NCBI GenBank assembly: GCA_043797085.1 | Contig: JAZDQA010000004.1 | Span: 64,001 to 128,000, forward strand | Direction: 5' to 3' | DNA from: Pseudomonadota bacterium | GTDB lineage: Bacteria; Campylobacterota; Campylobacteria; Campylobacterales; Sulfurimonadaceae | Length of the DNA stretch: 64,000 nt | In this document: in pieces, positions 34,177 through 38,950 of the stretch | Position numbering within the stretch: position 1 is the stretch's first letter | How the letters are laid out: each line of letters starts with the position of its first letter | The notes under the pieces: model-generated | What the model saw: only the letters and a program-made list of their open reading frames with translations | Databases searched by the model: none | What the model was told of the DNA's origin: nothing | Made by a program: the position numbers and the translations under genes

Positions 34177-35334
34177 ATGAAACGTTGGATATGGGAACAA
34201 GATGCTTATCCTCATTTTACCTATGATTTGAATACGCTTGAACAGTTGATTCAAGAGGTTTCACTGTCGCAAGGGTATCTGATCGCCATCACCCAAACGA
34301 TGGATCAAAACAATATCGCACAAAGACAACTCGAAGCGCTGATGAATGAAGCGATCAGCACCTCCGCAATCGAGGGAGAGATTCTCAATCGTGACAGTGT
34401 CAAAGCCTCTATCCAACGCAAGCTTGGGTTTACAGAGATAGACTCTTCAAAACGAGATATTTCGACCGATTATTTGATAGAAATACTTATCGATGCCAAT
34501 ACGAATTACGATCAAGATTTAACGCTTGAACGACTTTTTGGATGGCACAACGCTCTTTTTCCTCGTGGATATAGCGGTCTAAATAAGATCAACGTTGCCA
34601 CATTTAGAGGCGAAGAGGATATGGAGATTGTAGGCGGTGCCGCAGGAAAAGAGAAAACATTTTATCTAGCACCACCTAGAACGATGCTCGAAGAGGAGAT
34701 GAGTAGATATCTGCATTGGTTTAACGAAACGCCTGCAAGTTTGCTAAAGGCGTGTATCGCCCATCTATGGTTTGTTATTATTCACCCTTTTGATGATGGT
34801 AACGGTCGTATTGCCCGTGCCATCACCGATTTGGTTTTATCAAAAATAGAAAAATCGACCGTGTCGAGACTCTATTCGATGTCAAGTGCAATTAACAGTG
34901 ATCGCAAGGGGTATTACCGTGCGTTGGAACAGACAACGGGGTATGTCAGAAAAGAGACCAACCATATGAATATTACCATTTGGTGTAAATGGTTCCTCTC
35001 GACATTGAATACTGCATTGAGTGATACTAAAAAAAAGCTGGGATATATTGTCCAAAAAACGACGTTTTGGGATAAGTATAGAAATTATGATCTAAATCCA
35101 AGACAAACTAAAGTGCTTAATAAAATCCTCGATATGGGAGTTGAAAACTTTCAAGGCTCTTTGAGCAAAAAAAAATATATGACAATAGCAGACTCTGCAT
35201 CCACCACTGCCTCAAGAGATATTACACAGTTACTCGAAATAGGGTGTATCCGTCAAATTGAGGGGACGAATGGGAGAAATGTACGTTATGAGATTGTTTT
35301 TAGAACTGCTCCATGTGGTGTAGAGGAACAGTAG
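34177..35334 (+). CDS. Fic family protein (DUF4172-type N-terminus)
   Basis: WIWEQ start, STSAIEGE inhibitory motif, HPFDDGNGRIAR catalytic motif, C-terminal wHTH. Confidence 0.92.
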   Translation: MKRWIWEQDAYPHFTYDLNTLEQLIQEVSLSQGYLIAITQTMDQNNIAQRQLEALMNEAISTSAIEGEILNRDSVKASIQRKLGFTEIDSSKRDISTDYLIEILIDANTNYDQDLTLERLFGWHNALFPRGYSGLNKINVATFRGEEDMEIVGGAAGKEKTFYLAPPRTMLEEEMSRYLHWFNETPASLLKACIAHLWFVIIHPFDDGNGRIARAITDLVLSKIEKSTVSRLYSMSSAINSDRKGYYRALEQTTGYVRKETNHMNITIWCKWFLSTLNTALSDTKKKLGYIVQKTTFWDKYRNYDLNPRQTKVLNKILDMGVENFQGSLSKKKYMTIADSASTTASRDITQLLEIGCIRQIEGTNGRNVRYEIVFRTAPCGVEEQ

Positions 35335-35785: not shown

Positions 35786-35799
35786 TTGATGCAGGTCAA
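35786..35799 (-). promoter_or_regulatory. Crp/Fnr-type box upstream of cytochrome c553
   Basis: TTGAT-GCAG-GTCAA, 22 nt from TATAAT (35763-35758, minus strand). Confidence 0.8.
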
Positions 35800-35805
35800 G
35801 AGCCG

Positions 35806-36471
35806 TTACGATCGTAGGGTTATATGCGGGGCTAGTCTTTCATAGTCAACACGACGATTTGATGATGAAAGGTTTCCTATCGTTTTCATTCCCCCTTGAA
35901 AAATCTGTACGTAATATTCGCGATTATATCCCCTACGCTTTAAGATCTTTGCCATGGTGATAATATCTTCTTCGTCTAGCAATTCTGGATGAAATGTTGT
36001 TCGTACTTCAAAATCAATGCCACTATGATGAAGTATTTTAAAACTCTCCCAAAAACGTTTTTCGCTTCCGCCACCGCAGATTTCCCCCATTTTTGCTTCA
36101 GGGGCTTTGTAGTCTAGGGCAATATAATCAATAAGTTTGTTGTCGATTAGCACTTTAATCACATCAGGACGCATACCGTTGGTGTCGAGTTTGATTTTAT
36201 ATCCCAGTGTTTTTATAGAACGACAAAAAGCCAGAAGATGAGGGTAGGTCGTGCATTCGCCGCCACTAAGTACGACGCCTTCCAGCAGTCCTTGGCGACG
36301 GCGTAAAAAAGCAAGCGCTTCCTCTTCATCTATATGTGCAGTACCGAATACAATATCAGGATTGTAGCAGTAAACGCATCGCAGATTGCACCCTGCAAAC
36401 CAAAAAATAGCCGCAGGAGTGTCGGGGAAATCGAGAAGGGTAAACGGGGTGATGTCGTAGAGTGCTTTCAT
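35806..36471 (-). CDS. nrdG: Anaerobic ribonucleoside-triphosphate reductase activating enzyme (radical SAM)
   Basis: GCNLRCVYCYNP, SGGE, KLDTNG, EVRTT; downstream of nrdD. Confidence 0.92.
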   Translation of the reverse strand: MKALYDITPFTLLDFPDTPAAIFWFAGCNLRCVYCYNPDIVFGTAHIDEEEALAFLRRRQGLLEGVVLSGGECTTYPHLLAFCRSIKTLGYKIKLDTNGMRPDVIKVLIDNKLIDYIALDYKAPEAKMGEICGGGSEKRFWESFKILHHSGIDFEVRTTFHPELLDEEDIITMAKILKRRGYNREYYVQIFQGGMKTIGNLSSSNRRVDYERLAPHITLRS

Positions 36472-36475
36472 GTTT

Positions 36476-36561
36476 CGTCATCCTCGGGCTTGACCCGGGG
36501 ATCCATCCCCTTTTTCATTCACAAAAATACTAAGCTGGATTCCCGCCTACGCGGGAATGAC
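36476..36561 (-). repeat. Bipartite palindromic REP/RPE-like element, copy 2
   Basis: Reverse complement GTCATTCCCGCGTAGGCGGGAATCCAGCTT...GGGGATGGATCCCCGGGTCAAGCCCGAGGATGACG; arms near-identical to copy 1, spacer differs. Confidence 0.85.
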
Positions 36562-36587
36562 AGAGTGCTATAGGAAATAATATCTTG

Positions 36588-36752
36588 CTAGCTGGCTTTT
36601 AAACACTCTTTAAAATACATTCGATCTTTATGCTCTTGTTTTTTTCCGATATTAAAACTCTCGACGGGGCGATGATACCCCATCACTCTTGTGTACACCA
36701 TACAACGTGTTCGTTTGCTTTCTTGGCTTTTCAGCACCATTTCTGTATTCAT
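36588..36752 (-). CDS. Stand-alone glycyl-radical peptide of class III RNR (54 aa, absent from ORF track)
   Basis: MNTEMVLKSQESKRTRCMVYTRVMGYHRPVESFNIGKKQEHKDRMYFKECLKAS; RVMGY glycyl-radical motif; ATGA overlap with nrdD stop; AAGGAGG RBS. Confidence 0.9.
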   Translation of the reverse strand: MNTEMVLKSQESKRTRCMVYTRVMGYHRPVESFNIGKKQEHKDRMYFKECLKAS

Positions 36753-38851
36753 GCAACCTCCTTGGATAAGATTAATTCGTCACATTTCGGGCAAAACTCA
36801 TGTTCGCCGTGTAGATAGCCGTGCATCGGACACACAGAAAAAAGCGGTGTGATGGTGATATAGGGCAATCGGTGATGAGTTAAGACATTTTTGACCATCC
36901 GTCTACATGCTTCGATGGTTCCGATGCGCTCACTCATATAGAGATGCAACACCGTTCCCCCTGTATATTTACACTGAAGTTCGTCTTGGAGTTCCAGTGC
37001 CTCAAAGGGGTCGTCGGTATAGGCAACTGGGATTTGGGAGCTGTTGGTGTAATAAATGTTGTCACCTTCTCCTGCTTGTAAAATGTCGGGATAACGTTTT
37101 TTATCCTCTTTGGCAAAACGATACGTCGTCCCCTCGGCGGGTGTTGCTTCCAGATTGTACAAATTACCGCTGCGCTCTTGATAACCTCGGATGATATTAC
37201 GCATTTTTTCTAAAATATCCAGTGAAAACTCCACTCCCCATGCAGTGGATAAATCCTCTGTATCACCGCTAAAATTACGAACCATTTCGTTCATCCCGTT
37301 GACTCCGATGGTGGAAAAATGGTTATTGAATCCTTTTAAATAGCGTGCAGTATAAGGATAAAGTCCCCGCTCGAACATCTCGTTTACAAAGACTCGCTTT
37401 TTCTCCAGCGTTGAATAGGCAATTTCCATTAGCACATCCAGTGCCTCAAAAAACCGATCTTTATCTCCCGTGTACAAATAGCCTAAGCGTGCCATATTGA
37501 TGGTAACGACGCCGATGCTTCCCGTCATTTCGGCACTGCCGAACAGTCCATTTCCACGCTTTAGAAGTTCTCGCAAATCAAGCTGTAAGCGACAGCACAT
37601 ACTGCGTACCGCTCCCGGTTTATATGCATTGGGGTTTTCTATTTTATTTCCATTTTCATCTTTTAGATATTGGCTGCCGATAAAGTTTTGAAAATAGCTC
37701 GAACCGATTTTGGCAGTGTTTTCGAACAAAATATCGGTGTTTTCACCGTACCAGTCGAAATCTTCGGTGATATTGACCGTGGGGATTGGGAACGTAAAGG
37801 GCTGTCCGCCACTGTCGCCCTCGGTCATAATCTCATAGTAGGCTTTGTTAATAACGTTCATCTCTGCTTGAAAGTCACCGTATGTCAGGGCTTCGAGAGA
37901 ATGTTTTCCTCTCTCAAATAACTTGCGTTGATGATGTGCGGTTGCACTGATTTGCGAAAAAAGATGGTGATCATTATAGGTGGGAATTTGCCCCGCTAAA
38001 TCCTCAGGAACAACCCAGTCGAGGGTAATATTCGTAAAAGGAGATTGTCCCCAGCGGGCTGGGACGTTGAGATTGTAGACAAAACTTCGTATCGCTTTTT
38101 TCACATCATCCGCACTCAAAGCATCGATAAATACATAAGGAGCCAAATAGGTATCGAATGAGCTAAATGCTTGAGCTCCTGCCCATTCGGATTGCAGTAT
38201 TCCTAAAAAATTTGCCATTTGTCCCAATGCTTCACGCAAATGACGGGGAGGTGCGCTCTCAACACGTCCTCGAACGCCGTTAAACCCTTCGTTGAGCAAT
38301 GCACGTAAACTCCATCCGGCACAATATCCCGTCAGACAATCAAGATCGTGGATATGGATATCACCATTGCGATGAGCCGCTCCCTCTTGGGGTGAGTAGA
38401 TGGTATCGAGCCAAAAGTTTGCAACTACTTTTCCTGCTAGATTGTTGATAAGTCCTGCATTGGAATATCCTGTATTGGCATTGGCATTGATGCGCCAGTC
38501 CGTTTTATAGATGTATTCCTGAACGCTTTGGGTGGAGTTTACGAATGTGGTGTCGGGTAATAAACCTGCGACGTGTTCACGCTGCATTTTGTGTAAAAAT
38601 CGGTAAGTGATAAACGATTTCATCACCGTAAACTCACCCGAATTATGGAGCTCTTCTTCGATGATGTCTTGAATCTCTTCTACATTCCAAAGAGGCTTGG
38701 TCTCTAATCTCTCTAAAAGACATTTTAGTGCGATTTGATTGTAGGGGCGTGAGACACTTTCAAACCCTTTTTTGATTGCATCTACAATCTTATAGAGATG
38801 AAAGAGTTCTGTTGATCCATCGCGTTTACAAACACGTCTAGCTACCCCCAT
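36749..38851 (-). CDS. nrdD: Class III (anaerobic) ribonucleoside-triphosphate reductase large subunit, lacking the glycyl-radical loop
   Basis: N-terminal ATP cone (KRDGS), HIHDLD, TFPIPT, RSMCCRL, EATPAE, YTGGT, Zn site CPMHG...CPKC, then stop. Confidence 0.93.
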   Translation of the reverse strand: MGVARRVCKRDGSTELFHLYKIVDAIKKGFESVSRPYNQIALKCLLERLETKPLWNVEEIQDIIEEELHNSGEFTVMKSFITYRFLHKMQREHVAGLLPDTTFVNSTQSVQEYIYKTDWRINANANTGYSNAGLINNLAGKVVANFWLDTIYSPQEGAAHRNGDIHIHDLDCLTGYCAGWSLRALLNEGFNGVRGRVESAPPRHLREALGQMANFLGILQSEWAGAQAFSSFDTYLAPYVFIDALSADDVKKAIRSFVYNLNVPARWGQSPFTNITLDWVVPEDLAGQIPTYNDHHLFSQISATAHHQRKLFERGKHSLEALTYGDFQAEMNVINKAYYEIMTEGDSGGQPFTFPIPTVNITEDFDWYGENTDILFENTAKIGSSYFQNFIGSQYLKDENGNKIENPNAYKPGAVRSMCCRLQLDLRELLKRGNGLFGSAEMTGSIGVVTINMARLGYLYTGDKDRFFEALDVLMEIAYSTLEKKRVFVNEMFERGLYPYTARYLKGFNNHFSTIGVNGMNEMVRNFSGDTEDLSTAWGVEFSLDILEKMRNIIRGYQERSGNLYNLEATPAEGTTYRFAKEDKKRYPDILQAGEGDNIYYTNSSQIPVAYTDDPFEALELQDELQCKYTGGTVLHLYMSERIGTIEACRRMVKNVLTHHRLPYITITPLFSVCPMHGYLHGEHEFCPKCDELILSKEVA

Positions 38852-38936: not shown

Positions 38937-38950
38937 TTGACTTGGGTCAA
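38937..38950 (-). promoter_or_regulatory. Crp/Fnr-type box upstream of nrdD
   Basis: TTGAC-TTGG-GTCAA, 22 nt from TACAAT (38914-38909, minus strand). Confidence 0.85.

Follow-up and report, generated by a model that had tools for sequence, protein, structure and literature searches.

A class III ribonucleotide reductase locus with the glycyl-radical loop on a separate 54-residue protein

Background

The closest described counterparts of the locus reported here are class III ribonucleotide reductases (RNRs) made of a one-chain NrdD and its activase NrdG, as in P. copri (8P23), T. maritima (4COI/4U3E) and phage T4 (1H78), with PRK08270 as the family, NrdD2 as the type and NrdDh4 as the MCCR variant. 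All five solved NrdD sequences found are one-chain. The locus resides in a 64,000-nt stretch of DNA (the window) of contig JAZDQA010000004.1, assembly GCA_043797085.1, a Sulfuricurvum-like genome (G000) which is 96% complete and whose closest named relatives are Sulfuricurvum, with identity up to 98%. It consists of an open reading frame (ORF) for the NrdD body, a small gene encoding 54 aa, and nrdG2. Both ORFs combined provide the features of one-chain NrdD, namely barrel, ATP-cone, finger-loop cysteines, active-site Glu, Zn ribbon and loop motif, with the activase gene adjacent. Unlike one-chain NrdD, the glycyl loop is found on a second polypeptide, and the gene for it is sometimes far from nrdD.

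Small free glycyl-loop proteins serving a large enzyme have been described, in the accessible parts of the reports, for pyruvate formate-lyase (PFL), the cofactors being GrcA/YfiD and the Y06I protein of phage T4; as here, the loop protein may be phage-borne. The initial annotation of the window had drawn the GrcA/YfiD analogy, which holds for a small free protein with a radical loop and fails elsewhere: GrcA backs up a full-length enzyme, while the body described here never has a loop of its own. PF01228, the PFL/GrcA-type glycyl domain, has no match in the peptide or in the G000 genome at its 96% completeness. The analogy is imperfect because the genome has no one-chain NrdD to rescue, and for the same reason the peptide would be, as judged from the gene content, an obligate subunit. 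A free copy beside a fused NrdD, in the manner of GrcA, was not found in any of the three Sphingosinicella genomes inspected.

RNR catalytic subunits in two pieces are known as well, to the extent covered by the source excerpts: NrdJa/NrdJb of P. aeruginosa, NrdA-a/NrdA-b of phage Aeh1, and phage nrdD genes fragmented by introns or endonucleases. Those splits concern class I or II enzymes or insertions of mobile elements; in the present locus no element lies between the pieces, and the detached one holds the radical-storing residue. In Jug phages the 230- and 91-aa nrdD fragments are not joined by splicing, and the part of the report available does not discuss their function (PMC12880540); they are possibly the same split. 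According to a June 2026 review, known spare parts among glycyl-radical enzymes are confined to the formate lyases, and whether others have them is undetermined (PMC13450708). A full-text literature search, covering main texts and few subscription papers, retrieved no description of a separate NrdD glycyl-loop protein.

Results

Domain content of the body, the small protein and the activase

The genes follow each other on the minus strand in the order nrdD body, small gene, nrdG2 (Table 1). It had been noted from the sequence that NrdD ends soon after its Zn site and that a separate 54-aa ORF, with an AAGGAGG element and an ATGA overlap, comes next, and the coordinates bear this out: the body terminates just past the Zn site (CPKCDELILSKEVA, then the stop codon). 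The length of NrdD, estimated at about 750 residues, is 700 aa. The activase gene follows as claimed, at the far side of a 116-bp gap with two repeat hairpins. Among five local starts the Shine-Dalgarno pairing is strongest for the small ORF (-11.9 vs. -5.7 to -6.0 kcal/mol).

The Pfam NRDD model is tiled without overlap by the two products, the body covering model positions 2-528 and the small ORF positions 531-562. The body scores 531.5 bits against PF13597 and 1048.7 bits against PRK08270 (cut-off 548), and the activase, a radical S-adenosylmethionine (SAM) protein encoded close by, as is usual for a cognate activase, is NrdG2 by TIGR02495 (202.6 bits, cut-off 131). In 61 aligned bodies the barrel residues C177, C419 and C420, the finger-loop MCCR (residues 418-421), the active-site E441 and the Zn-ribbon ligands C674, H677, C687 and C690 are all invariant; the Zn-ribbon motif was found in 68 of 69 split bodies. 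[quoted passage not shown] A third Cys plus an active-site Glu define, in the available text of the sources, the thioredoxin-using NrdD2 subtype (PMC4493059, PMC4390871); both are present, and E441 is probably the counterpart of N. bacilliformis E438. The body also features the finger-loop Met, which leaves formate possible as reductant. G000 encodes a single NrdD body, a single small ORF, and one class I-type large subunit of 793 aa. Sequence searches of PDB with the peptide or its alignment gave no match, and the small protein modelled alone is of low confidence (predicted local distance difference test, pLDDT, 68.5; predicted template modelling score, pTM, 0.33). Complementary Pfam tiling, conservation in relatives and the predicted complex described below strongly support the proposal that the split is genuine and that the small ORF is the missing glycyl-radical segment, and the small protein is very probably the radical carrier of a working enzyme.

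Distribution of split and fused forms

The body was detected in 49 of 121 genomes searched, and the small gene is present in all 49. Matches to the peptide occur in 29 of 61 related genomes, each in an open frame of 55-116 aa, and in 146 of 301 genomes of the phylum; frames span 48-116 aa among the 150 matches listed, with 16 more beyond these. The best 80 body loci, with start codons picked by a heuristic, include 63 in which the pieces are split and adjacent, 6 in which 317-852 nt lie between them, and 3 fused; 2 loci are too close to a contig end and 6 truncated. The split is thus found in 69 of 72 scorable close relatives. Adjacent genes are set at 25 different offsets, from -41 to +102, in all three frames. 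The same junction recurs in 9 further genomes of the genus (L002-L009, L022) and in one complete cultured record, and is bridged without gaps by two contigs of related strains, from DNA run X4 (record 11) and from run X6 (record 27; the RNA label of X6 is a guess). Another X6 contig loses one base and gains one shortly after the start codon, with no net change in length. The argument that a clean ribosome-binding site and overlap speak against a frameshift error gains from these data, and the proposed check of split-point conservation gave a positive answer.

The small gene is under purifying selection, the ratio of non-synonymous to synonymous polymorphism (pN/pS) being 0.14 over 68 chromosomal small-gene cores; here and in the viral set below, saturation affects the synonymous sites, and the motif-based selection of the cores biases the motif columns and would mask glycine-less decoys. 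Split forms reside also in Bacteroidota, Alpha- and Betaproteobacteria, mixed among fused forms, so the layout is not peculiar to the microaerophiles of this group; NrdD of Actinomyces oris is fused. Among 150 distant representatives at 50% identity, sorted by pattern (at least one is misfiled and some may be fragments), 55 are fused, 56 end after a full Zn site, 21 after an incomplete one, and 18 are unclear. Many distant NrdD relatives (P0183-P0332) are 900-1900 aa long with several matched stretches, and are apparently intein-laden.

Similar small ORFs, as had been suspected, are already annotated: RefSeq/GenBank records of S. kujiense, Aquabacterium, Ralstonia, C. necator H16 and Bradyrhizobium list them as anaerobic ribonucleoside-triphosphate reductase. 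The 76.2-kDa NrdD of C. necator is the protein in which Siedow et al. in 1999 reportedly named G650 as the radical site. In strain H16 NrdD (pHG1, L037:5788-8161) is 676 aa long with a mass of 76.2 kDa, residue 650 is the Gly of the Zn-ribbon motif CPTHGY, and the RVMGY loop is on the next ORF (66 aa); for these reasons the G650 assignment may be wrong.

Displaced small genes

The small gene lies 1.2, 5.9, 68 or 95 kb from the body in some relatives. G006 and G030 have the small gene behind nrdD, nrdG and cytochrome c, in this order; in G025 and G033 it is found 5.9 kb downstream, between the gene for cytochrome cd1 nitrite reductase (nirS) and norC-norB-like genes. In all four genomes nrdD and nrdG stay together, and the small gene has left nrdG. 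The reverse holds for G147, G243, G286 and G328, where the small gene is beside nrdG and the body elsewhere: the sole body of G147 has no loop motif within 5 kb, and small gene and nrdG reside together 95 kb away. The distance is 68 kb in G108. Since the small gene lies up to 95 kb from the body, no recoding can bridge the displaced pairs. The 54-aa product is almost certainly a separate protein; the sequences show body and small protein to be separate genes with their own starts, and displaced genes and phage-only copies support a small ORF that works free-standing. At L045, L073, L086, L119 and L135 one or two further genes separate nrdD from the small gene, those at L135 matching NifU_N and a bacterial PAC-like family.

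Predicted assembly of the two chains

The check by complex prediction that had been suggested gave a score of 0.88 for body plus small protein, the best of three controls scoring 0.00. Contact agreement among runs was at least 92%, partner pLDDT at least 79, and the interface comprised 175-197 contacts. Of solved complexes 116 of 157 attain the mark used, as do 2 of 215 mismatched pairs, counts which apply only roughly here (own alignments, Zn ligand). In the model, small-protein residues 15-20 form pairs with residues 671-674 and 683-687 of the body.

Bodies devoid of the last Zn cysteine were sought by a pattern scan, which gave 129 loci, 118 of them distinct (83 split, 2 fused, 33 whose fetched flank shows no loop). 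Bodies with neither Cys nor His as fourth ligand have a partner with a Cys at the corresponding position in 8 of 8 cases, against 1 of 75 for bodies with His. These counts include kin and are not independent, and the compensating lineage is distant and cut at another point than the window body, which keeps all four ligands. Such compensation across chains is support for assembly independent of the model. Cys17 of the small protein is invariant in 120 of 120 database matches and in 69 of 69 close loci, and is placed next to C674 and C687 in the predicted complex. As a universal cross-chain Zn ligand it was discarded: the body has four ligands, and Cys17 is found also in 37 of 47 fused matches and in only 46 of 83 distant split partners.

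Phage and prophage copies

The small gene is present in 2-3 copies in several genomes of the order. The extra copies examined are mostly in prophages, between holin and an endolysin or DUF5675 gene; one is beside Mu Gam. A viral scan identified 204 relatives, of which the best 80 were analysed (53 distinct proteins, many being near-copies). Neither body nor nrdG is in the fetched flank of 79 of the 80, and 53 of these 79 flanks reach 2.5 kb or more upstream and 1 kb or more downstream. A lysis-gene probe matched within 1.5 kb of 59 of 80 copies; 3 further copies adjoin other endolysins, and 2 adjoin thymidylate synthase. Three whole viral records, one a complete 41.9-kb genome, carry the small piece alone. 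The pN/pS ratio is 0.17 over 59 viral cores. Stand-alone loop genes between holin and several unrelated endolysin families were seen at L120, L121, L123, L124, L126, L128, L129, L133, L137, L138 and L140-L217. At L196:5983-6170 the loop motif of the copy is broken by a stop, where an overlapping HNH endonuclease gene ends. A search of an annotated phage collection gave no match; PHROGs lists the phage copy as unknown (phrog_4132).

Nitrogen-oxide context

The locus is downstream of nap genes, in a nitrate/nitric oxide (NO) gene cluster, and nrdD of C. necator is about 1.2 kb downstream of norR-ytfE-norB. A TTGA-N6-TCAA box, which we take to be a candidate Crp/Fnr (Nss-type) site, is upstream of nrdD in 12 of 68 relatives vs. 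0.8% of shuffles. In the window the box recurs at 35786, 38937, 40499, 47417, 49056, 50934, 52783 and 59907, ahead of the cytochrome c, nrdD, porin and napA genes among others; the set looks like one Crp/Fnr (Nss-type) regulon.

Published work has O2 cleaving NrdD at the radical; for NO, irreversible destruction of the radical is described in PFL and in E. coli class III RNR (10.1101/2025.02.23.639758). O2 need not be the sole driver of the split, because NO destroys the radical too and the locus is in a nitrate/NO cluster.

Discussion

The variant of class III RNR is real; it would work like a built-in spare part, yet it is not a GrcA. The reading preferred here, on which we are evenly poised, is an enzyme of two polypeptides plus an activase, in which the small chain is an obligate radical subunit acting in trans and probably replaceable after O2 or NO damage. 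The small protein would dock on the body, residues 15-20 adding a beta strand to the Zn ribbon, and docking would set Gly25 inside the barrel. NrdG2 would put the radical on Gly25, to be passed to the MCCR cysteine as in one-chain NrdD; these steps are a strong inference. The reductant is probably of the thioredoxin type, from the NrdD2 signature. Least certain are the last steps, in which O2 would cleave or NO quench the radical site, so that damage might be limited to the small chain, and a fresh small protein might replace the damaged copy, the 700-aa body being reused. That replacement happens and matters seems to us a balanced question; for PFL, the recovery seen is 10-20%.

Several observations weigh against this reading. 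The complex score may come from likeness to, or memory of, solved one-chain NrdD, since the pieces are halves of a split gene, and fragments left by cleavage could stay caught in the large modelled interface. The activase cluster, too, is destroyed by NO (10.1101/2025.02.23.639758), damage that a spare loop would not fix. Nitrogen-oxide genes are within 6 kb at only 11 of 50 long loci, a count made without a background control, and the co-location may arise because both functions are needed without air. No contig of RNA run X5 (contigs only) covers the small ORF, which speaks neither way on expression. A tree of 80 rows has 8 fused/split changes, at least 5 of them forced; it is unrooted and sets no direction of change (fission or re-fusion), and similarity to the peptide guided the choice of its fused rows. 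The split is dispensable: fused forms are interspersed with split ones on the tree and make up about 55 of the 150 distant representatives.

A wider version of the preferred reading, tentative and rather doubtful as a whole, makes this the first spare-part system for a glycyl-radical enzyme besides PFL: nitrate-respiring or microaerophilic hosts would keep making deoxyribonucleoside triphosphates through O2 and self-made NO, temperate phages would carry this piece only, often between holin and endolysin, to keep the host class III RNR charged in lytic DNA synthesis, and the radical of C. necator H16 NrdD would have been assigned to the wrong chain.

Near-neutral gene fission, leading to a permanent two-chain enzyme assembled once, with no exchange and no repair benefit, is unlikely, and the strongest of the alternatives. 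Repeated switches between forms, the variable linkers of fused forms (25-43 aa) and the tight modelled interface are what it would predict, and split RNRs that keep working are known from the accessible accounts of Aeh1 nrdA-a/b and NrdJa/b. It leaves unexplained that phages retain the small piece only, and under purifying selection, and that the small gene sits in a nirS-norCB operon apart from nrdD and nrdG.

A split serving activation or regulation is improbable. A free loop could be an easier substrate for NrdG, or store the radical, and its supply could set the amount of active enzyme, as with the separate subunit of class I enzymes. The four genomes in which the small gene stays with nrdG, with the body elsewhere, fit this idea, as do, in the excerpts available, the high mobility of the glycyl-radical domain of P. 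copri NrdD and the acceptance of a 7-mer loop peptide by a PFL activase. The four in which it has parted from nrdG, leaving nrdD-nrdG together, do not; moreover, a radical on a free and largely unfolded peptide, as the poor lone model suggests, should be short-lived.

Production of one chain by programmed frameshifting, readthrough, ribosome bypass or splicing is highly improbable and close to refuted for the family. The ATGA overlap puts the small ORF in the -1 frame, a relation shared by 15 of the 63 adjacent cases, yet the 25 offsets are spread over three frames, the pieces can be separated by whole genes or by up to 95 kb, no slippery heptamer is within about 90 nt of the junction (one is at about 36840), Rfam gave no match at E up to 0.5, and the small gene has a strong Shine-Dalgarno of its own. 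An assembly error or a decaying pseudogene, conceivable for a genome in 14 contigs, is refuted by conservation: the junction is shared by 9 same-genus genomes, the complete cultured record and contigs of independent runs, and the pN/pS of chromosomal small genes is low.

The present analysis brings out displaced gene orders, the lysis-cassette site of the phage copies, and a counted cross-chain Zn compensation. Spare parts beyond formate lyases become a testable question through this layout. Many annotated NrdD proteins would be unable to work alone, as about half of the 150 distant representatives end loop-less; nrdD plus nrdG alone, cloned or assayed from such organisms, would fail or mislead. 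The phage copies would be a 50-residue metabolic accessory gene hidden among the PHROGs entries of unknown function.

Other features of the region

Coordinates are collected in Table 1.

Table 1. Features of the split nrdD locus, in window positions
Feature	Position	Strand	Remarks
nrdD body	36749..38851	-	700 aa; has ATP-cone, catalytic barrel and complete Zn site, lacks the glycyl loop
Small gene (glycyl-radical loop protein)	36588..36752	-	54 aa, TRVMGYHRPV...FNIGKKQE
ATGA overlap, body stop/small-gene start	36749-36752	-	
Shine-Dalgarno AAGGAGG of small gene	36757..36763	-	in last codons of body, 4 nt ahead of ATG
Gly25 codon	36678-36680	-	small gene
Cys17 codon	36702-36704	-	small gene
Zn-ribbon ligands C674, H677, C687, C690 of body	36782..36832	-	
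nrdG2 radical-SAM activase	35806..36471	-	221 aa, TIGR02495
Intergenic region	36472..36587		116 bp, two REP-like hairpins (~36475-36507, ~36533-36562)
TTGA-N6-TCAA palindrome	38937..38950		85 nt upstream of nrdD

The hairpins between small gene and nrdG2, which resemble repetitive extragenic palindromic (REP) sequences, have 15 further BLAST matches in the genome, and related copies are found in contigs of other organisms. They were ruled out as part of the system, being absent in close relatives, where the gap ranges from -16 to +33. A Fic/DUF4172 protein is encoded at 34177-35334 on the plus strand, convergent with the cluster.
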